Shown here one piece after another: positions 19,565 through 63,527 of a stretch of DNA of 64,000 nt. The notes beneath the pieces were generated by a model that saw only the letters and a list, made by a program, of their open reading frames with translations, was not told the DNA's origin and made no database searches. Origin of the DNA: an uncultured Solirubrobacterales bacterium (GTDB lineage Bacteria; Actinomycetota; Thermoleophilia; Solirubrobacterales; Solirubrobacteraceae); the NCBI GenBank assembly GCA_963713895.1, contig OY970210.1, positions 1,544,310 to 1,608,309 of the forward strand, written 5' to 3'. Numbering within the stretch: position 1 is the stretch's first letter; each line of letters opens with the position of its first letter. The position numbers and the translations under genes were made by a program.

Positions 19565-20640
19565 GTCGCGAGCCCCATCAGCAGCCGGTCGAGGTCATCC
19601 TCGTCGTTCCACGCCCCGACCGACGCTCGCAGCCAGGGCCTGGCGGGGATGTTACGCAAGATCACCCCGGCCTCGGCCAGTCGTGCCCGCTCTGCCTCCG
19701 GGTCGGGGCTCTCGAACGAAACGAGCGTGCTGTGGTCGCGCGGCGCCACCTCGCGGCCCCGCTCCGCCAGCAGGTCAGCCAGTCGCGCGGCCAGGCCGCG
19801 GGCCTGTTCATGGACCGTTTGCCAGCCGGCGGCTGCGAGCGCCCGGGTCGCCGCGAGCGCACACGCGAGCGTCTCGGCGCTCAGCGACATCGCGTCGAAG
19901 CGGCGCGCGTCGGTGTGCGGCACGGCGTCGAGCCCGGCGTCCGGCTCGGCCAGGTTCGGGTAGCCGCGCCGGCGCACCGACAGGCGCGCGCTGAGCGCGT
20001 CGGCGACGTACAGCATCCCCGTGCCGTCGGGTCCGCACAGCCACTTCTGTCCGGCGCCGGCGTAGGCGTCGCAGCCGAGCGCCTTGACGTCGACCGGCAC
20101 GGCGCCGATGCCCTGGGCGCCGTCGAGCAGCACCGGCACCTCGAGCTGCGCGAGCGCCGCGGGCGCCAGGCACCCGCTCATCCAGCTCACGTGCGAGCAC
20201 GCGACCAGGCGCGTTTTCGCACCGACGGCGGCGGCCACGTCAGCCAGCGGCACTGCGCGCACACTCACGCCTCGCAGCGCGCGCGCGGCGCCCAGCGCGC
20301 CGAGCAGGCCGGGATGCTCCTCGTCGCTGGTCACGATCTCGTCGCCCGCGCTCAGCGCGAGCCCGTCGATCACCTGCGCCATGCCTTCGCTCGTGCAGGT
20401 GGTGAGCGCGAGCTCGCGCGTCTCGCAGCCGAGCTGCTCGGCATATGCGGCGCGCAGCTCGTCTTTGAGCTCGGTGCGGCGCTCGAAGTGGGCTGAGGCG
20501 CGGCCGCGCCGGGCCTCGCGCTCGAGCTCGTCTGCCGCGGCCTGGGCCGCGCGCGCGGGCAGCGGTCCGTCGGTGCCGGCGTTGAGGTAGGCGTATGTGG
20601 CCAGGACGGGAAACTCGGCGCGCAACCCGGGCAGGCTCAC
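19561..20640 (-). CDS. Class V PLP aminotransferase / C-S lyase-like
   Basis: FPVL..YLNAG..GP, LDGAQ, GQKWLCGP (PLP Lys). Confidence 0.88.
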   Translation of the reverse strand: MSLPGLRAEFPVLATYAYLNAGTDGPLPARAAQAAADELEREARRGRASAHFERRTELKDELRAAYAEQLGCETRELALTTCTSEGMAQVIDGLALSAGDEIVTSDEEHPGLLGALGAARALRGVSVRAVPLADVAAAVGAKTRLVACSHVSWMSGCLAPAALAQLEVPVLLDGAQGIGAVPVDVKALGCDAYAGAGQKWLCGPDGTGMLYVADALSARLSVRRRGYPNLAEPDAGLDAVPHTDARRFDAMSLSAETLACALAATRALAAAGWQTVHEQARGLAARLADLLAERGREVAPRDHSTLVSFESPDPEAERARLAEAGVILRNIPARPWLRASVGAWNDEDDLDRLLMGLAT

Positions 20641-20659
20641 AAACGGCGAGAATACTGGG

Positions 20660-22699
20660 ATGGCCAGCGCGACCGGACAGCAGCCGCTGTGGGAGCCCTC
20701 GGCGGATGTGCGCGAGCGCGCGCAGCTGACCGGCTTCATGCGCTGGCTGGAAAAGGAGCCCGCCCACGCTGCGGCACGCGGCTTCGCGACCTACGCCGAG
20801 CTGTGGGAGTGGTCGGTGTCCGAGCTCGAGCGGTTCTGGGCGGCGATCTGGGAGTACTACGGCGTGCGCGCGTCGCGCCCGTACGAGCGCGTGCTGGACT
20901 CGCGCGAGATGCCAGGGGCGCGCTGGTTCGAGGGCGCTGAGCTCAACTACGCCGAGAACCTGCTGGCGCGTGAGCGCGACCCGGACGCGCTCGCGGTCCT
21001 GCATGCGTCGGAGCTGCGCGAGCTCGGCTCGCTCACCTGGGGTGAGCTGCGCGAGCAGGTGGCGCAGGCGGCGGCGGGCCTGCGCGAGCTGGGCGTCGGG
21101 CGCGGGGATCGCGTCGTCGCCTACATGCCCAATATCCCGGAGACGCTCGTGGCGTTCCTGGCCACGGCCAGCCTCGGCGCGATCTTCTCGAGCGCGGCGC
21201 CCGAGTTCGGGGTGCGCAGCGTGGTCGACCGTTTCGCCCAGATCGAGCCGGCGGTGCTGCTGGCGGTCGACGGCTACCGCCGCGGCGGCAAGGACTTCGA
21301 TCGCATCGACGCGGTGCGTGCGATCGCGCAGCAGCTGCCGGGCCTGCGTCATACCGTGCTGCTGCCCTACCTCGCGCGCCACGCGTCTGCCGCGGGACTG
21401 CCGGGAGGGCTCGGCTGGAGTGAGCTGCTCAGGCGCGGTGAGACCGGCGGCAGCATGCCGTCGTTCGAGCAGGTCCCGTTCGGGCATCCCCTGTGGGTGC
21501 TCTACTCCTCGGGCACGACCGGCCTGCCCAAGGCGATCGTGCATTCGCACGGGGGCATCCTGCTCGAGCAGCTCAAGAAGAGCCTGCATCTGGACCTGCG
21601 CGCCGGAGACCGCATGTTCTGGTTCACGACGACCGGCTGGATGATGTGGAACTTCCTGATCGGTTGCCTGCTCGGCGACGCGTCGATCATCCTCTACGAC
21701 GGCAGCCCCGGCCACCCGGACCTCGGCGCCCTCTGGCGCCTGGCCGAGCGGACCGAGATGACGTGCATGGGGGTGTCGGCGGGTCTGCTGGCCGCCTGCG
21801 CCAAGGCGGGCATCGAGCCGGCCCGCGACTACGAGCTGCACGCGCTGCGGGCGATCGGCTCGACCGGCTCGCCGCTGTCGCCCGAGAGCTTTCGCTGGGT
21901 CTACGAGCACGTCGGGCGCGATCGGTGGCTGTTCTCCACCAGCGGGGGGACCGATGTATGCACGGCGTTCGTGGCCGGCTGCCCGCTGCTGCCGGTCTAC
22001 GCGGGCGAGCTGCAGTGCCGGGCGCTCGGCTGCGCCGTGCAGGCGTTCGACGAGCGCGGCCACAGCCTCGTCGATCAGGTCGGCGAGCTGGTGATCACCG
22101 AGCCGATGCCCTCGATGCCCCTGTTCTTCTGGGGCGAGGACCCGCCGCGCCGCGATGGAAGCGGCGGCGAGCGCTATCGCGAGAGCTACTTCTCGATGTA
22201 TCCGGGGACATGGCGCCACGGCGACTGGATCCGCATCACCCCGCGCGGGGGCGCGGTCATATACGGACGCTCCGACGCCACCATCAACCGCCAGGGCGTG
22301 CGCATGGGCACGAGCGAGATCTACCGGGCGGCGGGCGCGGTCGAGGACGTGCTCGACGCGCTCGTGGTTGACATCCCCAGGCGCGGCTCCGGCGCCGAGG
22401 CGGGCGCCGAGCTGTGGATGATCCTGTTCGTCGTGCTGCGCGACGGTGTCAAGCTCGATCAGGAGCTGCGCGCACGGATCCTCGCGCGCATCCGCGAGGA
22501 CTGCTCGCCGCGGCACGTTCCCAACGAGGTGCTGCAGATCGCCGAGGTGCCGCGCACGCTGTCGGGCAAGGTCCTCGAGGTGCCGGTCAAGAAGATCCTG
22601 ATGGGCACCTCCCCGCGCGAGGCCGCGAGCGTGGACTCGCTCGCCAATCCCCGCTCGCTCGACTACTTCGTGGAGCTGGCCGGGAGCCTGAGCCACTGA
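20660..22699 (+). CDS. Acetoacetate--CoA ligase
   Basis: WFEGAELNYAENL, YSSGTTGLPK, TTTGWMMWN, SGGTD, HGDW, GRSD..NRQGVR, SGK. Confidence 0.93.
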   Translation: MASATGQQPLWEPSADVRERAQLTGFMRWLEKEPAHAAARGFATYAELWEWSVSELERFWAAIWEYYGVRASRPYERVLDSREMPGARWFEGAELNYAENLLARERDPDALAVLHASELRELGSLTWGELREQVAQAAAGLRELGVGRGDRVVAYMPNIPETLVAFLATASLGAIFSSAAPEFGVRSVVDRFAQIEPAVLLAVDGYRRGGKDFDRIDAVRAIAQQLPGLRHTVLLPYLARHASAAGLPGGLGWSELLRRGETGGSMPSFEQVPFGHPLWVLYSSGTTGLPKAIVHSHGGILLEQLKKSLHLDLRAGDRMFWFTTTGWMMWNFLIGCLLGDASIILYDGSPGHPDLGALWRLAERTEMTCMGVSAGLLAACAKAGIEPARDYELHALRAIGSTGSPLSPESFRWVYEHVGRDRWLFSTSGGTDVCTAFVAGCPLLPVYAGELQCRALGCAVQAFDERGHSLVDQVGELVITEPMPSMPLFFWGEDPPRRDGSGGERYRESYFSMYPGTWRHGDWIRITPRGGAVIYGRSDATINRQGVRMGTSEIYRAAGAVEDVLDALVVDIPRRGSGAEAGAELWMILFVVLRDGVKLDQELRARILARIREDCSPRHVPNEVLQIAEVPRTLSGKVLEVPVKKILMGTSPREAASVDSLANPRSLDYFVELAGSLSH

Positions 22700-40431: not shown

Positions 40432-41484
40432 TCAGGCGAGCACGTTCAGCGCGCGCGGCAGGATCGAGTAGCTGACCTGCGCGACCTCGCCGAGATAGTC
40501 GCCGTCGACCTGTAGCGGCAGCGGGCGCCCGTCGCTCGAGCGCACCGTGAGCTCGGTCAGCTCGGCCAGCCCGGTGACCTGCCGGTGGCGGCTGACGCGC
40601 GCGTGGCGCGAGAGCACGCGCAGACCGAGCGATGGCATCGACAGCGGAGAGGCACGGCGCAGAACGCAGCCACATAGCGCGCCGGAGTCCAGCTCGGTGC
40701 CGTCGGCGATCTCGATCGGGCGACTGTTGAAGTAAGTGAAAGGCGAGCCGTTCTGCACGATCGTGGTGATGCCCGGGAGGACCTCCTCGGCGACCAGCGC
40801 CTCCATGCGCGGGGGTCGCACCAGGTAGCGGCGCGCGAACGTGCCCAGCGCCACCCACGTGAAGTAGTAGGCGCCGAACCGGGCCTTCAGCCACGGGTTG
40901 GCGTCGACGCGCTCGACCACGCTTGCGTCGACCCCGAGGCCGGAGGCGAACGTGAAGCAGCGCCGCTCCGTACGGGTGCCCTCGGCATCTGATGCGTCTG
41001 CGTACAGCGCGCTGACGACTCCGAGATCAACGCGCCGGGGACGCCAATCATCAGCGAGCGCGAGCAGGTGCTCGGTGGCGTTGACGAGCTCGCCAGGTAT
41101 TCCGAGCATCTTGCCGAACACATTGGCCGAGCCGCCCGGCAGGCAGCTGAGCGGGGTCTGCGAGCCGAGGAGACCGTTCGCGGCTTCGTTGACGGTGCCG
41201 TCGCCGCCGAACGCGACGACCACGTCATAGCCCTCGTGTGCGGCCTCGCGGCAGAGCACGGTGGCGTGGCCGCGGGCCTCGGTGTCGATCGCATCCACGT
41301 CGAAGCGGCCCTGGAGCGCATAGACGACGAGATTGCGCAGCCGATCAGAGACGGTCGAGGCGTACGGGTTGACGATGATCAGCATGCGGCGCTTGGCCGT
41401 GGGCAGATCGGCCGCGAGGCTCGTGCGTGGCGCCGGCGGCGCGCTGGGCGCAGGCTGTGTGCCGGCTGCGCTTTCGGTGCTCAT
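40432..41484 (-). CDS. Diacylglycerol kinase family lipid kinase
   Basis: IVNPYA, GGDGTVNEAANG, PGGSANVF, QVDGD. Confidence 0.92.
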   Translation of the reverse strand: MSTESAAGTQPAPSAPPAPRTSLAADLPTAKRRMLIIVNPYASTVSDRLRNLVVYALQGRFDVDAIDTEARGHATVLCREAAHEGYDVVVAFGGDGTVNEAANGLLGSQTPLSCLPGGSANVFGKMLGIPGELVNATEHLLALADDWRPRRVDLGVVSALYADASDAEGTRTERRCFTFASGLGVDASVVERVDANPWLKARFGAYYFTWVALGTFARRYLVRPPRMEALVAEEVLPGITTIVQNGSPFTYFNSRPIEIADGTELDSGALCGCVLRRASPLSMPSLGLRVLSRHARVSRHRQVTGLAELTELTVRSSDGRPLPLQVDGDYLGEVAQVSYSILPRALNVLA

Positions 41485-41562
41485 ATGCTGGGCCTACACC
41501 GCTATACGGCGGGCGTTACCGCGCGCCGCGTGGGCTCTGTCGATCGCCCGTCCGGGCTCGCT

Positions 41563-41590
41563 TTGATTCCATCCGCCGGCTTGCTAGACT
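41563..41590 (+). promoter_or_regulatory. Promoter of the riboswitch-led operon
   Basis: TTGATT 41563-41568, 16 bp, TAGACT 41585-41590. Confidence 0.55.
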
Positions 41591-41608
41591 GGCGCGCTAC
41601 ATAGCAGG

Positions 41609-41697
41609 ACACATCAAGAGGGGTGGAGGGACTGGCCCGATGAAGCCCCGGCAACCACCGTTTCAAAGCGGGAAGGTGCCAATTCCAGAAGATGTGT
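41609..41697 (+). ncRNA. SAM-I-superfamily riboswitch lacking P4
   Basis: P1 ACACATC/GATGTGT; ATCAAGAG, GAGGGACTGGCCCGATGAAGCCCC, GGCAACC..GGTGCC, AATTCC conserved blocks. Confidence 0.92.
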
Positions 41698-41763
41698 GGC
41701 GGGCTTCGTGCTCTTCGCCACACCGTGTGTTACCGGCGAAGGGTCTTCAAAGGAGTCCAAGAC

Positions 41764-43065
41764 ATGGCTGTGAGTCATCTGCAGTGCAAGGAGTGCAAGG
41801 CCGAGTATCCGCTCGAGGCGCTGTACGTCTGCGAGCAGTGCTTCGGCCCGCTCGAGGTCGCTTACGATCACCGCCGGCTGGTGGATGGCGGGCGGGATGA
41901 GCTGAGGCGGCGAATCCAGGCGGGCCCGCAGAACATCTGGCGCTACGCCGACTTCCTGCCGCTGGCCGGGGGCCCGCCCGGGCCCTCGGGGCGCTTCGCC
42001 TCGCGCGCCGGGCTGCCGGCGGGGTGCACGCCGCTGATTCGCGCCGATCGCCTGGCGGCTGCGCTGGGCTTGCGCGAGGTGTGGGTCAAGAACGACGCCG
42101 CCAATCCGACGCACTCGTTCAAGGACCGGGTCGTGTCGGTGGCCTGCGCGCGCGCCCGCGAGCTCGGGTTTCAAACGCTCGCCTGCGCCTCCACCGGCAA
42201 CCTCGCCGGCTCGGTGGCCGCGCACGGGGCCGCGCTGGGGATGGAGTCCTACGTGTTCATCCCTGCCGACCTGGAGGAGCAGAAGGTGCTGGCGACCGGT
42301 ATCTACGGGACGAAGCTGGTCGCCGTCGAGGGCAACTACGACGACGTGAACCGCCTCTGCACCGAGCTGTGCGCCGAACGTGACTGGGCGTTCGTGAACG
42401 TCAACCTGCGTCCGTACTACGCCGAGGGCTCGAAGACGCTGGCGTTCGAGATCGCCGAGCAGCTCGGCTTCGAGCTGCCCGACCGGGTGGTCGCGCCGAT
42501 CGCCTCGGGCTCGCTGTTCACGAAGCTCGGCAAGGGCTTTCAGGAGTGGCGCGAGCTGGGCCTCATAGAGGACCCCACCCGCCCGCTGCCGCGCATGAGC
42601 GGCGCTCAGGCCGAGGGCTGCTCGCCTGTGGCGAGCGCGTTTGCCGCGGGCCGCGACGTGTGCCGTCCGGTCAAGCCCGAGACGATCGCCAAGTCGCTCG
42701 CGATCGGCAACCCGGCCGACGGGCCGTATGCGCTCGAGCTCGCGCGCGACAGTGGCGGCGGGGTGGACGCGGTCAGCGACAAGGAGATCCGCGAGGGCAT
42801 CGCGCTGCTCGCCCAGACCACGGGCGTGTTCACCGAGACCGCCGGCGGCGTCACCACCGCCGTGCTGGCCAAGCTGGCGCAGCGCGGGGACATCGACCCA
42901 GACGAGCGCGTCGTGCTGGTGATCACCGGCGAGGGCCTGAAGACGCTCGACGCCGTGCGCGGCACGTTCGTCACGCACACGATCGCGCCCACCGTGCAGG
43001 ACTTCGAGGCGCGCGTGCCCGCACAGCACGCGGGCGCAGAGTCCTCGCGCGAAGTCGCGGTCTGA
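41764..43065 (+). CDS. Threonine-synthase-like PLP enzyme, probable O-phosphohomoserine sulfhydrylase
   Basis: N-terminal CxxC..CxxC, NPTHSFKDR (PLP Lys), CASTGN, EGSKT, PIASG; AAGGAG SD. Confidence 0.88.
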   Translation: MAVSHLQCKECKAEYPLEALYVCEQCFGPLEVAYDHRRLVDGGRDELRRRIQAGPQNIWRYADFLPLAGGPPGPSGRFASRAGLPAGCTPLIRADRLAAALGLREVWVKNDAANPTHSFKDRVVSVACARARELGFQTLACASTGNLAGSVAAHGAALGMESYVFIPADLEEQKVLATGIYGTKLVAVEGNYDDVNRLCTELCAERDWAFVNVNLRPYYAEGSKTLAFEIAEQLGFELPDRVVAPIASGSLFTKLGKGFQEWRELGLIEDPTRPLPRMSGAQAEGCSPVASAFAAGRDVCRPVKPETIAKSLAIGNPADGPYALELARDSGGGVDAVSDKEIREGIALLAQTTGVFTETAGGVTTAVLAKLAQRGDIDPDERVVLVITGEGLKTLDAVRGTFVTHTIAPTVQDFEARVPAQHAGAESSREVAV

Positions 43066-43340
43066 TGGCCGCCACCGTCAAGATTCCGACCCAGCTGCGG
43101 GCCGCAGCCGGCGGCGAGGCCGAGGCGACGCTCGACGGCAGCACCGTGCACGAGGTGCTCGAGGCGCTGTATCAGCGGCACGGCGAGCTGCGCGACCGGC
43201 TCAGCTCCGAGGACGGCTCGCTGCGACGGTTCGTGAACGTGTACGTGTCCGGCGAAGACATCCGCTTCCTCGACGGCCTGCAGACGCCCGTCGCCGACGG
43301 GGCGGAGCTGACGATTCTCCCCGCCGTGGCGGGGGGCTAG
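43065..43340 (+). CDS. MoaD/ThiS/CysO-type sulfur carrier protein
   Basis: VKIPTQLR, RRFVNVYV..EDIRFL.GL.T, C-terminal PAVAGG; TGATG-coupled. Confidence 0.95.
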   Translation: MAATVKIPTQLRAAAGGEAEATLDGSTVHEVLEALYQRHGELRDRLSSEDGSLRRFVNVYVSGEDIRFLDGLQTPVADGAELTILPAVAGG

Positions 43341-43343
43341 GCC

Positions 43344-43562
43344 CTACTTGCCGGCCTGAGCCGCCGCCGTGTGCGCGTGGTGCGCAGTCGGGGGCGTGGC
43401 GCCGCTGACGCCGACCGTGCAGAAGAGCCCGGCGGCGCACATCGCGCTCACGGTCAGGGCGCGCATGCGCCGCGGCGTGAGCCAGCTGAAGTTGTGGGTC
43501 TGCATATAGGCTCGAAAGCCGCTCGCGGCCGAGCCCGCCGCCATCGCACAACCGACGCACAT
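43344..43562 (-). CDS. Small Cys/His-containing protein with one TM (72 aa)
   Basis: TATCCT -10 six nt before ATG; N-terminal MCVGCAM; WLTPRR then TM; HHAH tail. Confidence 0.7.
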   Translation of the reverse strand: MCVGCAMAAGSAASGFRAYMQTHNFSWLTPRRMRALTVSAMCAAGLFCTVGVSGATPPTAHHAHTAAAQAGK

Positions 43563-43566
43563 GCGG

Positions 43567-44562
43567 TCAGGATAGCTGACGCTCGGAGGTCTGACGGTCA
43601 GTCAGCTGACGATCGGCGGCCAGCTCAGGCTCAGCGACACGGCGCCCCGCCGCGAGGGTCTCCAGGCGCAGGCGCAGCTCGGCGGCGCGCCCCGCCGAGA
43701 CCGCGCGCGCCGCACGACTGTCGGTCAGCTCCAGGCCGTGCGACTGGGCGAAGTCGAGCAGCTCCTGGCGTTCCTCGCTCTCGCGCGCCGCGCGCATGAA
43801 CAGCCAGCAGAACAGCCCGATCGTGAGCAGCGACTCCTCGACCATCATCACAGCGCCGGCGATGTTCTGATCGGCGATCGGTGAGATGTGGTAGCTGATG
43901 TCGCCGTGGATGTAGTACGGGTAGAAGACGGTGCCCGACCACAGGAAGATGTTGCCGAGCACGGTGCCCGCCAGGCGCACGGCGATGATGTAGATGAGCT
44001 TGCCGAGGTTGCCGAACCAGCTCGGCATCGGCAGCGGCCCGAACAGGCACATCCACATGTTGATGCCGAAGCCGAGGAACATCGCGTGCTCGAGCGCGTG
44101 CACGCCGCCGTGGCGCAGCGCAGCTTCATAGAAGAGCGGCAGATGCCACATGTACAGGTCGATCGCCCACAGCGGAAACGCGATCAGCGGGTTGGCCAGA
44201 ATGCGCAGCCTGTCGAAGAAGCGGATGCGCAGGATCGGCGCGATCAACGGGCCGGTCAGGCCGAGCACGATCAACAGCGCCGCGACGTCGCCGAGCAGGA
44301 GGTGCTCGACCATGTGCATGAACAGCAGTTCCTGGCTGATTCGTCCGAGCGAGGTGAGCGCGGCGGCGATCACGACGAAGCCCGAGTAGAAGCAGGCCTG
44401 CCGCCAGCCGGGGACCGGATTGCGGCCCTCGATCGCGAGCGCGCGCACGCGCTGCGCGTACAGCAGCCCGGCGATCACGAGCGGCCCGATCTGAAGCGCC
44501 GTCTGGATGTCGGTCGAGGTTGCCAGCGGCACCAGTGTCGTCTCGCTCGCCAACATCATCAT
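43567..44562 (-). CDS. Cytochrome c oxidase assembly protein, Caa3-CtaG family
   Basis: MHMVEHLLL, WHLP.FYEAAL, HALEH, DQNIAGAVM. Confidence 0.9.
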   Translation of the reverse strand: MMMLASETTLVPLATSTDIQTALQIGPLVIAGLLYAQRVRALAIEGRNPVPGWRQACFYSGFVVIAAALTSLGRISQELLFMHMVEHLLLGDVAALLIVLGLTGPLIAPILRIRFFDRLRILANPLIAFPLWAIDLYMWHLPLFYEAALRHGGVHALEHAMFLGFGINMWMCLFGPLPMPSWFGNLGKLIYIIAVRLAGTVLGNIFLWSGTVFYPYYIHGDISYHISPIADQNIAGAVMMVEESLLTIGLFCWLFMRAARESEERQELLDFAQSHGLELTDSRAARAVSAGRAAELRLRLETLAAGRRVAEPELAADRQLTDRQTSERQLS

Positions 44563-47916: not shown

Positions 47917-49845
47917 TTGGGTCGAGCCTTCGCTGTAAGCATCGCCGCGCCGGCGCGGCGCGCGTTCTCACCGCGCGCGTGGATGTCGAGCGCGATCGTG
48001 GCGGGCGTCGCGCTCGGCTCGTCCGGGTGCGCACACGCGGGCCGGGACCCGGCGAGGACCGCGCCGAAGTGCGTGCCGCGCAGGCTCGGGGTCTCCCAGG
48101 CGCTCGCCGGGGGAGCAGTGACCGTCACGCCGGCTCCGGACTCGATGGACGCCTCGCACCTCACCCAGATCAGCTTCCTCGGCGTGCCGGCCGCCGAGAT
48201 CACCGATGTGAGCGTCACTGGAGCGGGCAGCGGCGCTCACGCCGGGCGCCTGGCGGCCTACTCGCAGGGAGACGGAGCAAGCTTCCTGCCTGCCAAGCCG
48301 TTTGACGAAGGTGAGGCGGTGAGCGTGCACGCGGTGCTGCGTAGGGGCACGACGGCCAGGCCGTTTTCCTGGCAGTTCACCGTCGCCGAGAGCGACTCCG
48401 TGAGTCGCTCGCTGGAGACGCCGCCACCGCCGCCGCCTCCGCCCAAGGCGAGCGAACTGCAGCACTTCGTCTCGCGCCCGGACCTGCAGCCGCCGACCGT
48501 CGCCGTGGACGCGGACAGGGATTCGCCGGAAGCGGGCGACATCTTCCTGGCGCCGTACGCCGGACCCGGCCAGTACGGGCCGATGATCCTGGATGGCCAT
48601 GGCGGCCTGGTGTGGTTCAAGCCGATCCCGAAGGGCGAGCGCGCGGCCGATCTGCGCGTGCAGCAGTACGAAGGCAAGCCGGTCCTGAGCTGGTGGCAGG
48701 ACCCGCTGGTCGCCGGCGGCCGGCGCGACGCGGGCATCGTGATTGCGAACAGCGCCTACCGGGACATCGCGATCGTGCGCGCCGGCAACGGATACCAGCC
48801 CGACCTGCATGCTTTCGAAATCACGCCGAAAGGGACGGCGCTGTTCACGGTCTACGACGCGATCCGCTGCAATCTCAGCGCCTACGGCGGCCCCGCGGAC
48901 GGCGCGATCGCGGACACGCTCTTCCAGGAGATCGACCTGCGCACGCGGCTCGTGCGCTACGAATGGCATGCGCTCGACCATGTCGCTCCGACCGACTCCT
49001 ACGAGCCGATCGGCAGCGGCGGCACGGACGTCTCCCCTTGGGACTACTTCCACATCAACGCCGTCTCTGAACACGGCGGAGACCTGCTCGTAGACTCGCG
49101 CAACACCTGGGCCGCCTACGACGTCTCGCCCAGAACCGGGCAGAACGTCTGGCGCCTGGGCGGCAAGCAGTCGAGCTTCCGGATGGGGCGTGGCGCGAGC
49201 CCCGCCTGGCAGCACGACGCCCGCGAAGAGCCGGACGGCACGATCTCGTTCTTCGACAACGGCGGCACGCCGAAGGTTCACGCGCAGTCGCGCGTGATCG
49301 TGCTGTCGCTGAACCGGCGCACGATGACGGCGACGCTGCTGTCGAGCTTCGTGCACCCAGGCCCTCTGCTGGCGGCCAGCCAGGGCGATTTTCAGCCGCT
49401 GCCCGACGGCGATTGGTTCACCGGCTGGGGCCAGGAACCGTTCTTCTCCGAATTCTCCTCGACGGGCCGGGTCCTGCTCGACGCGAACCTGCCCGCCGAC
49501 TACCAGTCCTTCACCGTGCTCAAGTACCCCTGGTCCGGCCAGCCCACCGATCCGCCGGCGTTCGTCGCGCGCGGGCGTCCAGGGGGCGGACTCGACGTGT
49601 ACGCGAGCTGGAACGGTGCCACCCAACTCGCAAGCTGGAGAGTGCTCGAGGGCGGGAGCGCGGCGCACCTCGCGGCGGTCGCGCAGGGGGGGCGCGAGGG
49701 CTTCGAGACCGAGATCGGCGCACCTGACGCCCGCGGGTACGTGGCCGTTCAGGCGCTCGGCGCCGGTGGGCAGGTGCTGGGCACATCCTCGCCGCGGGCC
49801 GTCGGGGCGAGCCTCGGCAAGCCGAGGCTTTCTCGCGGGGGCTGA
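47917..49845 (+). CDS. Exported arylsulfotransferase (ASST) family protein
   Basis: FVSRPDLQPP, DLHAF, DYFHINAV, WQHDAR, FFDNG, SQG, GWG; start uncertain. Confidence 0.88.
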   Translation: MGRAFAVSIAAPARRAFSPRAWMSSAIVAGVALGSSGCAHAGRDPARTAPKCVPRRLGVSQALAGGAVTVTPAPDSMDASHLTQISFLGVPAAEITDVSVTGAGSGAHAGRLAAYSQGDGASFLPAKPFDEGEAVSVHAVLRRGTTARPFSWQFTVAESDSVSRSLETPPPPPPPPKASELQHFVSRPDLQPPTVAVDADRDSPEAGDIFLAPYAGPGQYGPMILDGHGGLVWFKPIPKGERAADLRVQQYEGKPVLSWWQDPLVAGGRRDAGIVIANSAYRDIAIVRAGNGYQPDLHAFEITPKGTALFTVYDAIRCNLSAYGGPADGAIADTLFQEIDLRTRLVRYEWHALDHVAPTDSYEPIGSGGTDVSPWDYFHINAVSEHGGDLLVDSRNTWAAYDVSPRTGQNVWRLGGKQSSFRMGRGASPAWQHDAREEPDGTISFFDNGGTPKVHAQSRVIVLSLNRRTMTATLLSSFVHPGPLLAASQGDFQPLPDGDWFTGWGQEPFFSEFSSTGRVLLDANLPADYQSFTVLKYPWSGQPTDPPAFVARGRPGGGLDVYASWNGATQLASWRVLEGGSAAHLAAVAQGGREGFETEIGAPDARGYVAVQALGAGGQVLGTSSPRAVGASLGKPRLSRGG

Positions 49846-55225: not shown

Positions 55226-55376
55226 CGGCCGCGCGCGGCGGTTGCCATGGTGAGCGCTGGCGTCGGCCGCGATTGGCCTCGACGACGCTTTGCCCGTCAA
55301 CGCCGAGCCGGGTTCTCCGGACTCTCCGCCCGGGCGCCATCCGGCTCGTCGGCCTCGGCTGGTACAGTCACGGCGA

Positions 55377-55410
55377 TCCTTTAACCCGGTCCAGAGAGGC
55401 CAGGAAGGAA
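55377..55410 (+). ncRNA. PyrR binding loop overlapping the pyrR SD
   Basis: CCTTTAA..GGTCCAGAGAGGCC..AAGG matches the PyrR consensus; TACAGT -10 at 55363-55368. Confidence 0.88.
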
Positions 55411-55415
55411 CCCGG

Positions 55416-56060
55416 ATGGACAACGAGAAGACGGTCCTCGGCGAGGAGGAGCTGCAGCGGGCGCTCACGCGGATCGCGCACGAGATCGTCGAGCGCAATC
55501 CCGACCGGCCGGCCCCGGCGCTTGTCGGCATCCATCGTCGAGGCGCGTTCCTGGCGGGCCGGCTACAGCGACTGCTACAGGAGCTGCTCGACGTCGAGGT
55601 GCCGCTCGGCGACCTCGACATCGGCTTCTACCGCGACGACGTGGCACGTCGCGGCGACGCACCGATCCTGCACGCGTCGCACATCGACTTCGACGTCGCA
55701 GACCGCACGGTCGTGATCGTCAACGACGTCCTCTACACGGGGCGCACCGCGCGCGCCGCGATCGACGCGCTGTTCGACTACGGGCGCCCCGCACGCGTGC
55801 AGCTGGCTGTGCTCGCCGACCGCGGCCATCGCGAGCTGCCGATCAGGCCCGACTATGTCGGCAAGAACCTGCCGACCTCACGCGCCGAGCACGTGCACGT
55901 GCGCCTGTGCGAGCTGGACGGCGTGGACGAAGTTGCCATTGCCCTGGGCACGCATGGCGGCGCTGGATCGGCGTCCTCGGTCGCTCGCGTGCCAAGCACG
56001 CCACGCCGGGCGGGCGGGCTCAGCACTAGACCAGCTTGCCCTGCGTACCCAGGGTCGTGA
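55416..56060 (+). CDS. pyrR: Pyrimidine operon regulator / UPRTase
   Basis: RALTRIAHEI.E, GI.RRG, LDIGFYRDD, VLYTGRT, DRGHRELPIRPDYVGKN. Confidence 0.96.
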   Translation: MDNEKTVLGEEELQRALTRIAHEIVERNPDRPAPALVGIHRRGAFLAGRLQRLLQELLDVEVPLGDLDIGFYRDDVARRGDAPILHASHIDFDVADRTVVIVNDVLYTGRTARAAIDALFDYGRPARVQLAVLADRGHRELPIRPDYVGKNLPTSRAEHVHVRLCELDGVDEVAIALGTHGGAGSASSVARVPSTPRRAGGLSTRPACPAYPGS

Positions 56061-56076
56061 CATTGGTGCTCAGGGC

Positions 56077-57114
56077 ATGAACCACCTGCTGACGATGGAA
56101 GACCTCGACCGCGCTGCGATCGAGCGGATCGTGGGCCAGGCGGAGCGCTTCGCGGAGGTGTCCGATCGTGAGATCAAGAAGGTGCCCGCGCTGCGCGGGC
56201 GGATGGTTCTGAACCTCTTCTACGAGGCCTCGACGCGCACGCGCAGCTCCTTCGAGCTGGCCGCCAAGCGCCTGTCCGCGGACGTCGTGAACTTCGCCGC
56301 CAGCGGCTCGAGCGTCGAGAAGGGGGAGTCGTTGAAGGACACGGTGCTGACGCTCAGCGCGCACAAGCCCGACGCGATCGTGCTGCGCACGCCGTGGGCG
56401 GGCGCAGCGGAGCTCGTGTCCCGATGGTGCAGCGCCGCGATCGTCAACGCGGGCGACGGCAAGCACGAGCATCCCACCCAGGCGCTGCTCGATGTGTACA
56501 CGCTGCGCCAGCGTCTGGGCGAGATCGACGACGCGTCGATCTGGATCGTCGGCGACGTGGCGCATTCGCGCGTGGCGCGCTCGAACATCATCGCCTTCCA
56601 GCGCATGGGCGCGCGCGTGACGGTCGCCGGCCCGCCGACGCTGATCCCGCGTGGAATCGAGGCGCTCGGCTGCGATGTGCGGTACACGCTCGACGAGCTC
56701 GGATCGGCCGATGTGGTGTATGCGCTGCGGATGCAGCGCGAGCGCATGAACGAGGCCTGGGTGCCCTCGCTGCGCGAGTACGCAACGTGGTATCAGATCA
56801 ACGGTGATCGCCTCGAGCCGCACCAGGTGCTGATGCATCCCGGCCCGGTGAATCGCGGCGTCGAGCTCTCCGGCGAGGCGGTCGACTCGCCGCAGGCCGT
56901 GATCGCCGCCCAGGTCGAGGCCGGGGTCGTGGTGCGCATGGCCGTGCTGTACGAGCTGCTGGCCGGTGCGGGGACGCGCGCGGACCGCGTGTCTACCGGT
57001 CCGGCGGAGCGCGTGTCTACCGGTCCGGCGGAGCGAGTGTCTCCCGGTTCAGCGGACACGCGTGCCGAGCGCCCACCGGTCGAGGATCCCCTGCCCGAGC
57101 CTCAGTTGACGTGA
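56077..57114 (+). CDS. pyrB: Aspartate carbamoyltransferase catalytic subunit
   Basis: FYEASTRT, KGESL.DT, NAGDG.HEHPTQALLD, MHPGPVNRG. Confidence 0.97.
   Translation: MNHLLTMEDLDRAAIERIVGQAERFAEVSDREIKKVPALRGRMVLNLFYEASTRTRSSFELAAKRLSADVVNFAASGSSVEKGESLKDTVLTLSAHKPDAIVLRTPWAGAAELVSRWCSAAIVNAGDGKHEHPTQALLDVYTLRQRLGEIDDASIWIVGDVAHSRVARSNIIAFQRMGARVTVAGPPTLIPRGIEALGCDVRYTLDELGSADVVYALRMQRERMNEAWVPSLREYATWYQINGDRLEPHQVLMHPGPVNRGVELSGEAVDSPQAVIAAQVEAGVVVRMAVLYELLAGAGTRADRVSTGPAERVSTGPAERVSPGSADTRAERPPVEDPLPEPQLT
56980..57056 (+). repeat. 24-bp in-frame tandem repeat in the pyrB tail (RVSTGPAE x3)
   Basis: Units GCGGA(C/G)CGCGTGTCTACCGGTCCG at 56980, 57004, 57028. Confidence 0.9.
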
Positions 57115-58460
57115 TGGCCGCCGAGACGCTCTCGCATGGACGGTACCCGCCGGCCCAGCTGCTGCTGCGGGATGTGCGCGTGCTCGAGCCGCGCGCGCGA
57201 CTCGACGCCTGCCGCGACGTGCTGGTGCGCGACGGCAAGATCGCGGCGCTGGCCGAGGCCGGCTCGCTCGGCGAGCCGCTCGAGGAGATCGAGCTGGTCG
57301 ACGGACAGGGACGGCTGCTGGCGCCCGCCTTCTTCGACCCGCACGTGCACCTGCGCAGTCCCGGCCAGGAGCACAAGGAGGACTTGCGGAGCGGCACGCG
57401 CGCTGCCGCCGCGGGCGGCTTTGGCGCGGTGATCGCGATGCCGAACACCGACCCCGTGATCGACTCGGCGCCGCTGCTCGGATCGCTGCGCGAGGCGGCG
57501 GCGCGCGAGGCGTGCATCCCGGTCGGGTTCATGGCGGCGATCACCTCCGGCCAGCGCGGCGAGGAGCTGACGGAGATGGCGTATCTGCGCGCCGAGGGCG
57601 CGCTCGGCTTCACCGACGATGGCCTCCCGGTCGCGAGCGCCGGGATGCTGCGCAAGGCGATGCAGTACCAGCGGCTATGCGGCGGGGTGCTCAGCCTGCA
57701 CGAGGAGGATCGGACGCTCTCGCGCGGCGGTTGCATGCGCGAGGGAGCCGTCAGCGCGGCGCTCGGGATCGGCGGAGTCCCGAGCGTGAGCGAGTTGACG
57801 ATGGTCGCCCGCGACGCCGAGCTCGCGCTGTACGAGTCCGCGCGCGTGCACTTCCAGCACCTCAGCTGCGCCGCCGCCGTAGCGGCTGTCGAGCGCGCCA
57901 GGGCGGGCGGGGCGCGGGTCAGCTGCGAGGTGACTCCGCATCATCTGCTGCTCACCGACGAGAGCGTGCGCGAGCTCGACACGCGCATGAAGATGAACCC
58001 TCCGCTCGCCGGCTCGGACGACCGCGGCGCGCTCGTACAGGCGCTGCGCAGCGGCACGATCGACTGCGTCGCCACCGACCACGCGCCGCACGCGCGCGAG
58101 GAGAAGGAAGTGCCCTTCGAGCAGGCCCCGATGGGCACGACCGGCCTCGAGACAGCGTTCCCCGCGCTCTATACAGGCCTGGTCCTGAGCGGCGAGCTCG
58201 AGCTCGAGACGCTCATCGAGCGGATGACCGCGGGCGCCGCGCTGTTCGAGCTGCCCACGCCCACGATCGCGCCGGGCGAGCCGGCGAACCTGACCCTGAT
58301 CGATCTCGACGCCGAGCTGATCGCGGGCGAGCACGGCTGGGAGAGCCGTTCGGAGAACTGCTGCTTCGCGGGCCGGCGCCTGCACGGGCGCGTGCTGCTG
58401 ACGCTCGCCGCCGGCGCCGTGGTCTACCGCGAGCCCGTCTTCTCGGTGGTGGCGGCATGA
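57111..58460 (+). CDS. pyrC: Dihydroorotase
   Basis: DPHVHLR, AMPNT, FTDDG, HEED, QHLS, CEVTPHH, KMNPPL, TDHAPH. Confidence 0.96.
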   Translation: MMAAETLSHGRYPPAQLLLRDVRVLEPRARLDACRDVLVRDGKIAALAEAGSLGEPLEEIELVDGQGRLLAPAFFDPHVHLRSPGQEHKEDLRSGTRAAAAGGFGAVIAMPNTDPVIDSAPLLGSLREAAAREACIPVGFMAAITSGQRGEELTEMAYLRAEGALGFTDDGLPVASAGMLRKAMQYQRLCGGVLSLHEEDRTLSRGGCMREGAVSAALGIGGVPSVSELTMVARDAELALYESARVHFQHLSCAAAVAAVERARAGGARVSCEVTPHHLLLTDESVRELDTRMKMNPPLAGSDDRGALVQALRSGTIDCVATDHAPHAREEKEVPFEQAPMGTTGLETAFPALYTGLVLSGELELETLIERMTAGAALFELPTPTIAPGEPANLTLIDLDAELIAGEHGWESRSENCCFAGRRLHGRVLLTLAAGAVVYREPVFSVVAA

Positions 58461-58462
58461 GC

Positions 58463-58650
58463 GGATTTTTTTGGGGGGGCCGCATCCGGGCGGGCCGTTG
58501 CGCTGACGGGCGCACGGGTGCGGGGCATCCAGCCCCGCTTACGAGCGCAGGGGACGGGACACGCGCCCTGGCGCTGGACAGGAGGTCCAGCGCCAACTAC
58601 CTGTGTTGCCAACGTACACGCGCGGATGCGACCCAAAAGAGAGACCACCG
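58463..58650. other. 188-bp structured intergenic insert flanked by ATGAGC direct repeats
   Basis: ATGAGC at 58457 and 58651; subterminal inverted repeat TTTTGGG..CGCATCCG / CGGATGCG.CCCAAAA; hairpin GGCGCTGGAC-AGGAG-GTCCAGCGCC. Confidence 0.6.
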
Positions 58651-59208
58651 ATGAGCCTGCTCGAACGCGACAGGACGGCGCTGGTCGTCGTGGACGTCCA
58701 GGAGGGGTTTCGCCCGTACGCCTCATTCGCGGACGTCGCCGACGGCGCCCGCAAGCTCGTGCAGGCAGCGCGCATGCTCGAGCTGCCGATGATCGTCAGC
58801 GAGCAGTACCCGAAAGGGCTTGGTCACACCGCGCCCGAGGTAGGCATCGGCGCGATGCCCGACGACTCTGTCGCAGGCGATGCGCGGGAGCGGCTGATCG
58901 AGAAGACCGTCTTCTCCGCCGCGCGCGCCGACGGCTTCGACCTGCAAGGCCGGACACAGGCCGTCGTGTGCGGGATCGAGACGCACGTCTGCGTCAGTCA
59001 GACCGTTCACGATCTGCTCGCGCAGGGAGTCGAAGTCCACGTGCCCGCCGACGCCGTCGGGTCGCGCCACGAGATCGACTACGAGCGCGGCCTCGAGCGT
59101 CTGCAGCGTGCCGGCGCCGAGGTCAGCACCGTCGAGGCGGTCGTGTTCGAGCTGCTCGAGCGGTCCGGCACGCCGGAGTTCAAAGCCGTCCAAAAGCTGA
59201 TTCTCTGA
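58651..59208 (+). CDS. Isochorismatase-family (YcaC-like) cysteine hydrolase
   Basis: VVDVQE, SEQYPKGLGHT, EKTVFS, GIETHVCV. Confidence 0.92.
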   Translation: MSLLERDRTALVVVDVQEGFRPYASFADVADGARKLVQAARMLELPMIVSEQYPKGLGHTAPEVGIGAMPDDSVAGDARERLIEKTVFSAARADGFDLQGRTQAVVCGIETHVCVSQTVHDLLAQGVEVHVPADAVGSRHEIDYERGLERLQRAGAEVSTVEAVVFELLERSGTPEFKAVQKLIL

Positions 59209-59215
59209 CGCCGAC

Positions 59216-60436
59216 ATGAGTGACCCCAGCGCCTACGTGCTGCTCGACGACGGCACGCGCTTTGACGGCACGGCCTGCGCCGCAGATGGGCACGCCGTCG
59301 GCGAGGTCGTGTTCACGACCGGGATGAGCGGCTATCAGGAGTCGATGACCGACCCCTCGTTCGCCGGCCAGCTGATCACCTTCACATACCCGCACATCGG
59401 CAACTACGGCGTCAGCGCCCAGGCGATGGAGTCCGACCGGCCGTGGGCGCGAGCCGCGATCATGCGCGCGGCCTGCGACCGCGAGGATGCGCCCGGCGCT
59501 GAGGGAGGCTGGCTGCGGTGGCTGCGCGATTGCGGCGTCGTCGGGATCAGCGGCGTGGACACGCGTACGCTGGTCAAGCACATCCGCGATCGCGGCGCCA
59601 TGCGCGGCGGGGTGTTTCCGGCATCGCTGTCCGAGCGCGAGGCGCGCGGGCTGATCGCGGCCGAGCCGCCGATGGCCGGACAGGATCTCGCGCGGCAGGT
59701 GACGCCGGCGAGCGTCACTCGGCACGGCACGGCCGGACGGGGGCCGCACATCGCCGTGCTGGACACCGGCATCAAGGCCTCGATGGTGCGCGAGCTGCTC
59801 GCGCGTGGCGCCAATGTGACGCTGCACCCCTGCACCAGCTCGGCGACCGAGCTGCTGGCCGAGGATCCCGACGCCGTGTTCCTCGCCAACGGCCCGGGCG
59901 ATCCCGCCGCACTGAAGTACATCGTCGCGACCGTTCGGGAGATCGTCGGGCGCAAGCCGGTGTGGGGCATCTGCCTCGGCCACCAGCTGCTGTGCCGCGC
60001 CGTCGGCCTGGAGACGTTCAAGCTGCCGTTCGGACACCGCGGCGCCAACCATCCCGTCAAGGACCTCGAGAGCGGGCGCATCGAGATCACCTCGCAGAAT
60101 CACGGCTTCGCCGCGCTCGGCCCGAACGGGGCGCGCACGATCGACGACGACGCGCCCGTGCGCTGGCAGACGGACTTCGGCGAGGCCCAGCTGTCGCACG
60201 TGAACCTGTACGACCGCACCGTCGAGGGGCTCGAGCTGCTCGACGTGCCCGGCGGCACGGTCCAGTACCACCCCGAGGCCGGGCCGGGCCCGCACGACAG
60301 CAAGTACCTGTTCGACCGTTTCCTGGCGCGAATCGCCGCGGCGGAGGATGGCGGGTGGGAGCGGTCCGGTGGGGGACGAGCGGAGGCCGTGCCCTCCTCT
60401 CGACGCGGGCTGGACGCGCGGCGTGGCCATGCCTAG
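59216..60436 (+). CDS. carA: Carbamoyl-phosphate synthase small subunit
   Basis: [49 protein letters not shown]. Confidence 0.97.
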
Positions 60437-63400
60437 ACGGGATGACATCCACAAGATCCTGATCCTCGGCTCGGGACCGATCGTGATCGGGCAGGCGGCC
60501 GAGTTCGACTACTCGGGCGTGCAGGCCTGCAAGGTGCTGCGCGAAGAGGGCTATCAGATCGTGCTCGTGAACTCCAACCCGGCGACGATCATGACCGACC
60601 CCGAGCTCGCCGACGCGACCTATGTCGAGCCGCTGCTGCCGGCGCCGGTGGCGCAGGTGATCGCGCGCGAGCGCCCGGACGCGCTGCTGCCGACGCTCGG
60701 CGGCCAGACGGCGCTGAATCTCGCCAAGGCGCTGCAGGACGACGGTACGTTGGAGCGCTACGGCGTCGAGCTGATCGGCGCCAGCTACGAGGCGATCGCG
60801 TGTGCCGAGGACCGCGAGCTGTTCGGCGCGGCGATGGCGCGCGTCGGCCTGAAGATGCCCGACAGCGCGATCGCCACGACGCTCGAGCAGGCCACGCAGG
60901 CGCTCGCGCGGATCGGCCTGCCGTGCATCGTGCGTCCGGCCTTCACGCTCGGCGGGCGCGGCGGCGGGATCGCGCGTAACCCGCAGGAGTTCGAGCAGAT
61001 CGTCGCGCGCGGGCTCGAGGTCTCGCCGATCGGCCAGGTGCTGCTCGATGAGTCGGTGCTCGGCTGGGGCGAGTTCGAGCTCGAGGTGATGCGCGACGGC
61101 GCCGACAACGTCGTGATCGTCTGCTCGATCGAGAACCTCGACCCGATGGGGGTGCACACCGGCGACTCGGTCACCGTGGCGCCGCAGCAGACGCTTCCGG
61201 ACAGTCTCTATCAGCGCCTGCGCGACCAGGCGATCGCGGTGATCCGCGCGGTCGGGGTCGAAACCGGCGGCTCGAATGTCCAGTTCGCCGTCGATCCCGG
61301 CAGCGAACAGATCCTCGTGATCGAGATGAACCCGCGCGTGTCGCGCAGCTCCGCGCTCGCGTCGAAGGCGACGGGCTTTCCGATCGCGAAGATCGCCGCG
61401 CGCCTGGCGGTCGGCTACCGGCTCGAGGAGATCAGCAACGACATCACCGGCGTCACCCCGGCGTGCTTCGAGCCGACGATCGACTACGTGGTGGTGAAGT
61501 GGCCACGGTTCGCGTTCGAGAAGTTCCCGGGAACCGACGCCAGGCTGTCGACGCACATGCAGTCGGTCGGCGAGGCGATGGCGATCGGGCGCACGTTCGG
61601 GCAGGCGTTCGCCAAGGCGTTGCGCTCGCGCGAGCTCGACAAGCCGCCGCGGCTCGAGCACGCGAGCGAGCAGGCGCTGCTCGATGGGCTCGCGATTCCG
61701 GCTCCCGACCGCTTCGAGGCGATGATCGAGCTGCTGCGCAAAGGCGTGGACATCGAGCTGCTGCACGAGCGCACGCGCATCGACCTCTGGTTCCTGCGCG
61801 AGCTGCGTACGCTCGCGCAAGATCCGCAGGCGCCTTTCGCCGGCGAGCGCTCGTTTCGCTCGGTCAACACGTGCGCCGCCGAGTTCCCCGCGGACACCCC
61901 CTACTACTACTCGGGCTGGGAGCGCCCGCAGCCCGGCCGCGGGGCGGTGCACGAGATCAGGCGCGGCGAGCGACCGTCGGTCGTGATTCTCGGCGCCGGG
62001 CCCAATCGCATCGGTCAGGGCATCGAGTTCGACTACTGCTGCGTCCACGCCGCCGCGACGGTGCGCGAGTCCGGGCGTGACGCCGTCATGATCAACTGCA
62101 ATCCCGAGACGGTCTCGACCGACTACGACACCTCCGACCGGCTCTACTTCGAGCCGCTGACGCTCGAGGACGTGCTGGGCGTCGTCGCGATCGAGCAGCC
62201 CGAGGGTGTGGTCGTGCAGTTCGGCGGACAGACCCCGCTGAAGCTCGCCGCCGGGCTCGCCGCGGCCGGCGTGACGCTGCTGGGCACGAGCGTCGAGGCG
62301 ATCGACCTCGCCGAGGATCGCGGGCGCTTCGGGGCTCTGCTCGCCCGGCTCGGCTACAAGGCGCCGCCGTACGCGAGCGCGCGCTCGGTCGCCGAGGCGC
62401 TCACGCAGGCCGAGCAGGTCGGCTACCCGCTGCTCGTTCGACCCTCCTATGTGCTCGGCGGGCGTGCGATGGAGCTCGTCTACTCGCGCGAGGCGCTCGC
62501 CGACTATCTCAGCCGCGAGCCCACCCCGCCTTCCGCGAGCATCTTTCTCGATCGCTTTCTGGAGAACGCCACCGAGGTGGATGTCGATGCGATCTGCGAC
62601 GGGACCGATGTCTGGATCGGCGGCATCATGCAGCACGTCGAGGAGGCGGGCGTGCATTCCGGCGACAGCGCGTGCGTGCTGCCGCCTCACTCCCTGGGCG
62701 AGGAGATGCTGGGCCAGGTCCGCGCGGCCACACGCGAGATCGCGCTCGCGCTCGGCGTGGTCGGGCTGCTCAACGTGCAGTACGCGGTCCACGCCGGCGA
62801 GCTGCACGTGATCGAGGCCAACCCGCGGGCGTCGCGTACGGTGCCGTTCGTCTCCAAGGCGGTGGGCGTGCCGCTGGCAAAGCTCGCCTGCCGGATCGTG
62901 CTGGGCGAGAAGCTCGCCGATCTGGATCTGCCTGCGGGCCGCGAGGGTCTCGGCTACGGCGACCACGTCTCGGTCAAGGAGGCGGTGCTGCCGTTCGATC
63001 GCTTCGAGGGCGCCGATGCGGTGCTCGGGCCGGAGATGCGTTCGACCGGCGAGGTGATGGGGATCGCGCGCGACTTCCCGACCGCGTTCGCCAAGGCGCA
63101 GGCGGCCGCCGGCGTACCGCTGCCGCGCGAGGGCACGGCCTTCATCTCCGTGACCGACTCCGACAAGGCCGGCGCCTTCGCGGTCGCTCAAACCCTGCAC
63201 GATTGCGGCTTTCAGATCGTGGCCACGCGCGGCACCGCCGAGGCGATCGCACGCATGGGCGTACCCGCCAAGCGGCTGAACAAGATCGGCGAGGGCTCGC
63301 CGCACGTGGTCAACTGGATCGAGCGCGGAGACGTCGACATGGTGGTGAACACGCCTACCGGCTCGGGCGCACGGACCGACGGATGGGAGATCAGGCGCGC

Positions 63401-63527
63401 CGCGGTCATGCACGGAATCCCCTGCCTGACGACGCTTGCAGCCGGGGTCAGCGCAGCCCGCGCGATCGCGCGCGCCCAGGCCGGGGGCGAGCCGCAGGTG
63501 CTGTGCCTGCAAGAGCTCCACCGGTGA
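60429..63527 (+). CDS. carB: Carbamoyl-phosphate synthase large subunit
   Basis: [52 protein letters not shown] domain. Confidence 0.98.

Follow-up and report, generated by a model that had tools for sequence, protein, structure and literature searches.

The 64-kb stretch of DNA analysed here (the window) is part of a 4,084,008-bp contig from an uncultured soil bacterium of the Solirubrobacterales (Solirubrobacteraceae, class Thermoleophilia), and on its + strand it carries, in this order, an S-adenosylmethionine (SAM)-I riboswitch, a gene for a pyridoxal 5'-phosphate (PLP) enzyme of the threonine synthase (ThrC) family and a gene for a sulfur carrier of the ThiS/MoaD/CysO type (Table 1). Since this locus shows every sequence-level feature of MetM/MetO and its genes are orthologs of the Streptomyces ones, we read it, with high confidence, as a metM-metO operon that encodes the route from O-phosphohomoserine and a carrier thiocarboxylate to homocysteine and that SAM represses by way of the SAM-I riboswitch. 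In Streptomyces albulus, MetM is a ThrC homolog that forms homocysteine from O-phosphohomoserine and thiocarboxylated MetO, and a SAM riboswitch lies 5' of metM (Hasebe et al. 2024, AEM 90:e01247-24, as relayed in PMC12172450). The GapMind 2026 preprint also includes MetM/MetO and describes MetM as 'often misannotated' as threonine synthase. The locus shares with the Streptomyces pair the ThrC-paralog enzyme, the adjacent GG-terminated carrier of ThiS/MoaD type and the upstream SAM-I riboswitch, and its enzyme falls in one orthologous clade with the Streptomyces MetM-type proteins, with all of the clade-invariant signature residues.

Table 1. Features of the locus, in window coordinates
Feature	Position	Strand	Evidence or content
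Putative sigma-A promoter	41563-41590	+	-35 TTGATT (41563-41568), 16-nt spacer, extended -10 TGcTAGACT
SAM-I (S-box) aptamer	41608-41698	+	Rfam RF00162, 80.6 bits, E = 2.2e-17
Predicted anti-terminator/anti-sequestor helix	41694-41723	+	GUGUGGCG (41694-41701) pairs with CGCCACAC (41716-41723)
Predicted two-tier OFF structure	41701-41758	+	Minimum-free-energy fold with helix P1 formed
metM-type gene, ThrC-family PLP enzyme, 433 amino acids	41764-43065	+	Pfam PALP, 5.4e-76
metO-type gene, ThiS/MoaD/CysO-family sulfur carrier, 91 amino acids	43065-43340	+	Pfam ThiS, 2.9e-16

The aptamer match covers the full model (1-108), whose gathering score is 44.4, and it is the sole SAM-I aptamer in the window; as the aptamer is complete, exceeds this score and has an expression platform that competes with its helix P1, the element belongs to the SAM-I class. 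The enzyme gene begins with the ATG at 41764, 8 nucleotides (nt) past a GGAG, and stops with the TGA at 43063-43065; the gene call in the database also has 433 amino acids. A longer open reading frame (ORF) from the ATG at 41692 was rejected as the enzyme start because this codon is located inside P1. The enzyme stop and the carrier start overlap by one base (GTC TGATG GCC), which couples the two genes translationally, and the carrier, with its ATG at 43065 and its TAG at 43340, has the C-terminus ...ILPAVAGG, followed directly by the stop. It may be noted that the first-pass annotation, made from the sequence without database searches, had already placed a SAM aptamer, a ThrC-like PLP enzyme and a coupled ubiquitin-like carrier ending in AGG at 41609-43340; all three are present, with these limits exact to within one base. 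The Streptomyces MetM/MetO pair that it named is the one of S. albulus cited above, and the sulfur-carrier-dependent route to homocysteine that it proposed is supported at the sequence level by orthology, carrier and riboswitch as in that pair.

The arrangement of riboswitch, enzyme and carrier is conserved. Among 80 related loci taken from GTDB species representatives, all of them from Thermoleophilia and with enzymes 71-88% identical to that of the window, the carrier gene is directly 3' of the enzyme gene in every case (80/80), in most of them with an overlap of 1 or 4 nt, and the aptamer is 5' of the enzyme gene in 79, the exception having just 95 nt of upstream sequence. As a side observation, in one Thermoleophilaceae genome metM and metO are separated by an inserted 235-amino-acid ORF whose GxGxG motif resembles that of class-I SAM methyltransferases (L080:11334-12041). 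Further loci were obtained by scanning the GTDB representatives for codons of NPTHSFKDRVV, the variant of the PLP-lysine motif present in the enzyme. At least 119 were found, all encoding proteins 53-86% identical to the window enzyme, and those listed come from Streptomyces (at least about 30), Kitasatospora, Streptosporangiales, Micromonosporaceae, Pseudonocardiaceae, Nocardioides, Dehalococcoidia and more Thermoleophilia. A SAM-I riboswitch is present directly 5' of the gene in all 16 Streptomycetaceae loci checked (67-84 bits, Rfam), where the members of the clade also have the carrier gene adjacent, and the same triad occurs on the chromosome of Nonomuraea gerenzanensis, which is filed in PLSDB as a plasmid. 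The window locus differs from the Streptomyces ones in its host, which is in Thermoleophilia and not in Actinomycetes, and in its TGATG overlap, as most of the Streptomyces loci have a spacer of about 30-170 nt and several a 4-nt overlap. On clustering the neighbourhoods of 125 metM loci, no MoeZ or JAMM gene was found as a conserved metM neighbour in any sampled lineage; the neighbours are lineage-specific housekeeping genes only (groEL, otsB-like, diacylglycerol (DAG) kinase, relA, HIT, PMM).

Not all lineages keep the carrier beside the enzyme. Nine loci from Pseudonocardiaceae and Micromonosporaceae (L083, L086, L111, L124, L139, L151, L175, L188 and L199) have a SAM aptamer and a MetM-type gene, and no carrier gene was found in the 1-4 kb of sequence downstream of them, so that in these families the carrier must be encoded elsewhere (perhaps as CysO) or another sulfur donor must be used. 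In Dehalococcoidia (Chloroflexota), the MetM-type genes of L091, L150, L190 and L197 encode proteins 53-55% identical to the window enzyme; a carrier lies 99-375 nt downstream in L150, L190 and L197 and none was found in L091. No SAM-I riboswitch reaches the Rfam gathering threshold in L091 and L150, and therefore regulation there must differ. The lack of an adjacent carrier in Pseudonocardiaceae, Micromonosporaceae and some Dehalococcoidia loci would fit an enzyme of MetM type that makes homocysteine with free sulfide or another small sulfur donor, the carrier then being an accessory or serving another pathway. We consider this improbable, because the adjacency of the carrier in all of the 80 Thermoleophilia loci, mostly with translational coupling, argues for a 1:1 functional partnership, because the carrier-less lineages could use a carrier encoded elsewhere, for example of CysO type, and because GapMind, in summarising the primary paper, names the reaction 'MetO-thiocarboxylate-dependent'.

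The carrier itself scores 71 bits with the NCBIfam model SAMP1 (cutoff 60), and its closest solved structures are those of CysO (4n6e_B of Amycolatopsis orientalis, 3.7e-22, and 3dwg_C of Mycobacterium tuberculosis, 1.7e-19). Its identity is 47-52% to CysO of M. tuberculosis and A. orientalis, and equally to Streptomyces MetO; as it is not separable from CysO by identity, the assignment as MetO rests on genomic context. The codons for AGG are directly 5' of the stop in 132 of the 153 sampled carriers. The GG-stop tail of the window carrier means that no maturation protease is needed, whereas some carriers, mostly of Streptomycetaceae, end in GGC. The latter make up 9 of the 153 (L089, L097, L103, L121, L153, L168, L178, L185 and L195; six from Streptomyces/Kitasatospora and one each from Nocardiopsis, Phytoactinopolyspora and S. 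aculeolatus), and they would need the terminal Cys to be removed, which fits the '[MetO]-L-cysteine hydrolase Mec' of GapMind. The CysO/CysM/Mec/MoeZ system of M. tuberculosis makes cysteine from O-phosphoserine, and its carrier shares both the family and the PAVAGG tail with that of the window. The logic is also common to the two, in that a phospho-amino acid gives rise to an intermediate on PLP, which is attacked by the thiocarboxylate of a protein. However, the partner enzyme in the window is of ThrC type and not an O-phosphoserine sulfhydrylase of CysK/CysM type, its predicted product is homocysteine and not cysteine, and no mec or moeZ gene adjoins the pair. In the HcyS/HcyD/HcyF/MetY system of Wolinella succinogenes the sulfur of homocysteine comes from a protein thiocarboxylate, as proposed for the window pair, but there the enzyme is a fold-type I O-acetylhomoserine sulfhydrylase (MetY) with an acyl-homoserine substrate, and the genes for activation and processing lie in the same cluster.

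This likeness of the carrier to CysO leaves room for the carrier thiocarboxylate to serve in some other beta- or gamma-replacement, such as the conversion of O-phosphoserine to cysteine in the manner of CysM/CysO, or a cysteate-synthase-like reaction; cysteate synthase belongs to the ThrC family, and cysteine-related genes are sometimes under SAM riboswitches. Nevertheless we hold such a reaction to be very unlikely. The NCBIfam cysteate synthase model gives the enzyme 67 bits against a cutoff of 325, threonine synthase models account for all of its best family matches, with no CysM/CysK among the top NCBIfam matches, and its orthologs are those of the Streptomyces clade, the characterised member of which has O-phosphohomoserine as its substrate.

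The separation of the enzyme from canonical threonine synthase was analysed on a neighbour-joining tree of 18 MetM-type and 14 canonical ThrC sequences with 200 bootstraps, in which orthology was set against Streptomyces species other than S. albulus that have the described architecture. The MetM-type and canonical clades split in 200/200 bootstraps, and the window enzyme groups with the ThrC paralogs of Streptomyces, Kitasatospora, Nonomuraea and Dehalococcoidia; thus a phylogeny against ThrC and MetM, which the first-pass annotation had put forward as a check, places the enzyme on the MetM-type side. Within the tree set its identity is 55-57% to the MetM-type proteins of Streptomyces, Nonomuraea and Dehalococcoidia, as against 37-40% to canonical ThrC, the Solirubrobacterales one among them. 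As Solirubrobacterales, Streptomyces and Dehalococcoidia are found in both clades, the duplication must be ancient. A scan for the canonical motif NPTGSFKDRGM found ThrC genes of about 340 codons, without zinc ribbon, in many Solirubrobacterales metagenome-assembled genomes (MAGs), and in one of these thrC is in a lysA-hom-thrC-thrB operon (Pfam-confirmed), so that the lineage has, besides an ordinary threonine synthase, a homoserine kinase to supply O-phosphohomoserine. Both paralogs are present in the single genome of N. gerenzanensis, and also in the Actinomycetota MAG CAVOOM01 (L127 and L260), which is not from Solirubrobacterales and is the only shared MAG among the matches listed.

The enzyme and canonical ThrC (TIGR00260; 1UIM, 2ZSJ, 6CGQ, 2D1F) have in common the fold-type II PLP domain, the lysine in NPTxSFKDR and the ASTGN motif, and probably also the O-phosphohomoserine substrate and the phosphate-elimination step. 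No structure of a MetM has been solved, and the best PDB matches of the enzyme are to canonical ThrC (1e-57); its PLP lysine K120, in NPTHSFKDRVV, aligns with K61 of the Thermus thermophilus enzyme. It differs from canonical ThrC in an extra N-terminal part of about 80 amino acids with a 4-Cys zinc ribbon (C-x2-C...C-x2-C, residues 8-26, with C8, C11, C23 and C26), which the solved bacterial ThrCs are without, the alignment to them beginning only at residue 83-85; also, its gene is outside a hom-thrC-thrB operon and is under SAM control. In addition it carries the signature NVNLRPYYAEGSKT. Twelve positions in the active-site region of ThrC are invariant within each clade and different between the clades. 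With the T. thermophilus residue given first and the window residue second, these are G58 to H117; G64 and M65 to V123 and V124; T88 to L147; S155 to N214; N157 to R216; R160 to Y219; Q164 to S223; GNAGN 187-191 to ASGSL 247-251 (N188 to S248); T239 to K310; R242 to A313; W249 to G320; and Y275 to I346. Among them T88, S155, R160, N188 and GNAGN are invariant in 14/14 canonical ThrCs and replaced in 17-18 of the 18 MetM-type sequences, the window enzyme having L147, N214, Y219, S248 and ASGSL in their place. We take T88, S155, R160 and N188 to be the residues that contact the substrate phosphate in the T. thermophilus enzyme (1V7C/3AEX), and the substrate phosphate in ThrC is thought to guide the addition of water at C-beta. 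Remodelling of the phosphate pocket would be expected if the enzyme retained the ThrC substrate while attack on it came from a different nucleophile and at a different position. The metM-type product is predicted to be an O-phosphohomoserine-dependent homocysteine synthase.

Several observations weigh against reading the locus as metM-metO. The enzyme scores 276.6 bits with the NCBIfam thrC equivalog TIGR00260, above its cutoff of 167.1, and a homolog from M. aeruginosa that is 51.6% identical to MetM is reported to have acted in vitro chiefly as a threonine synthase/deaminase (PMC12172450), so that membership of the clade alone is no proof of the activity. Also, neither a ThiF/MoeZ-type E1 nor a JAMM hydrolase was found among the about 40 ORFs of the window by Pfam, in line with the first-pass annotation, which had put the MoeZ-like and JAMM genes outside the window, and the canonical thrC and thrB are absent from the 64 kb. 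The TIGR00260 score explains the label 'threonine synthase', which is the name of the enzyme and its relatives across all the source databases; the more specific model PRK08197 gives 267.5, under its cutoff of 303, and no MetM-specific model of NCBIfam release 20 is among the matches to the window enzyme. We give next to no credence to an ordinary threonine synthase that would by chance stand behind a SAM riboswitch and beside an unrelated MoaD-like gene, for although this score and these names speak for it, the enzyme is separated in 200/200 bootstraps even from the hom-linked ThrC of its own lineage, the canonical invariant residues are replaced (T88L, S155N, R160Y, N188S and others), riboswitch and carrier are kept across classes, and a shutdown of threonine synthesis triggered by SAM would be physiologically senseless.

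We infer that the metM-metO pair of the window shares the activity of MetM/MetO, together with partner enzymes encoded elsewhere. An E1-like enzyme of MoeZ type would adenylate the Gly-Gly-ended MetO, leading to its C-terminal thiocarboxylate. MetM would bind O-phosphohomoserine on PLP, with K120 as the Schiff-base lysine, and eliminate phosphate as ThrC does; the thiocarboxylate of MetO would then attack C-gamma, where ThrC adds water at C-beta, and release from the carrier would give homocysteine to be methylated to methionine. A more far-reaching proposal, which we put forward tentatively and think rather less likely to hold than not, is that Thermoleophilia make homocysteine mainly or solely through metM-metO and do so without carrier maturation, the carrier being GG-terminated and coupled, and that remodelling of the ThrC phosphate pocket redirects a vinylglycine-type intermediate from water at C-beta to the thiocarboxylate at C-gamma. 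In this proposal the remodelling might consist, equally tentatively, of T88L, S155N, R160Y and N188S with H117, R216 and K310 as new residues.

In the leader, P1 of the aptamer is formed by 41608-41615 paired with 41691-41698, and GUGUGGCG (41694-41701) is the 3' strand of P1 plus GCG. The helix that this segment makes with 41716-41723 has a folding energy of -13.1 kcal/mol and is incompatible with P1 and with both OFF helices; as it forms only when P1 is open, it belongs to the state in which SAM is absent. In the OFF state, an inner terminator-like GC-rich hairpin pairs CUCUUCGCC (41711-41719) with GGCGAAGGG (41735-41743) at -13.8 kcal/mol, and an outer helix of GGGCUUC (41701-41707) with GGAGUCC (41752-41758) buries the Shine-Dalgarno GGAG (41752-41755), the two together having -21.8 kcal/mol. 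An alignment of the leaders of the 80 relatives shows that the anti-terminator complementarity GAUGUGGC...GCCAC is kept across leaders, including those of distant Thermoleophilia, and that a TAnnnT -10-like element stands at constant distance 5' of the aptamer; in the window the -10 hexamer is at 41585-41590. A simple consensus scan of 41400-43600 for promoters and terminators gave no match, the putative promoter being below the scan threshold. Conservation and folding suggest both the promoter at about 41563-41590 and the OFF hairpin. In the more distant Thermoleophilia the equivalent hairpin, CCUCCGCC...GGCGGAGG, has a U-run after it, immediately 5' of the start codon, as in a classic intrinsic terminator. 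The window copy is without the U-run, which makes sequestration of the Shine-Dalgarno sequence the likelier mode in it; the model that we favour as likelier is translational repression, possibly with Rho-dependent termination. This expression platform, a terminator-like hairpin without U-run plus a sequestering helix, sets the window apart from the Streptomyces loci. We deduce the details of switching as follows. With SAM abundant, P1 would be locked and the downstream hairpin and the helix burying the Shine-Dalgarno sequence would form, turning the operon off; with SAM scarce, the 3' strand of P1 would pair with 41716-41723, by which the hairpin would be opened and the ribosome-binding site freed.

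The genes 5' of the locus are housekeeping ones (ruvA, ruvB, secDF, recJ, relA and a divergent DAG-kinase-like gene), and the 3' neighbour is a convergent gene for a CtaG-like membrane protein. The Pfam scan of the window ORFs found no hom, thrB, metX or metY, and there is no second ThrC homolog within the 64 kb. A class-V aminotransferase gene (19561-20739, - strand; Aminotran_5, 6.1e-28) is located about 21 kb 5' of the locus, and the Aminotran_5 family includes cysteine desulfurases able to supply carrier proteins with sulfur. About 4.5 kb 3' of metO is a gene for a 642-amino-acid protein with an arylsulfotransferase (ASST) domain (47917-49845; Pfam 1.3e-42), with an FHA-domain protein and two ORFs without Pfam match in between; no connection of the ASST gene to the met operon was found. 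Elsewhere in the window, a tRNA gene (968-1041, + strand) adjoins an IS66-family transposase gene (1112-2563, - strand), and this pair at 968-2563 may mark the place where a mobile element inserted; beyond the transposase gene are a DUF6582 ORF and several small ones that gave no Pfam match. A pyrimidine operon (55290-63527; pyrR-like phosphoribosyltransferase, pyrB, pyrC, carA and carB) is split between pyrC and carA by an isochorismatase-family gene (58603-59208).

The pathway is already known, having been published in 2024 and built into GapMind, and the window locus is a new lineage member and not a new kind of system, its value being chiefly for annotation and as comparative context. The MetM/MetO operon appears to be near-universal in the sampled Solirubrobacterales/Thermoleophilia, which are abundant and mostly uncultured soil bacteria. 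Since the enzyme is labelled 'threonine synthase' in every source database, metabolic reconstructions of the MAGs of this group will miss this route to methionine and miscount thrC, and as a MetM-type protein passes TIGR00260, PGAP-style annotation will go on naming the whole clade threonine synthase. The signature of NPTHSFKDRVV, NVNLRPYYAEGSKT, PIASGS and the N-terminal 4-Cys ribbon sets the MetM-type proteins apart from true ThrC. The occurrence of metM without an adjacent carrier in some actinomycete families raises the question of their carrier or sulfur donor. The short list of active-site substitutions provides candidate determinants of gamma-replacement versus beta-addition, and if the pocket-remodelling reading is true, it would give a defined set of residues for switching reaction specificity between two paralogs.

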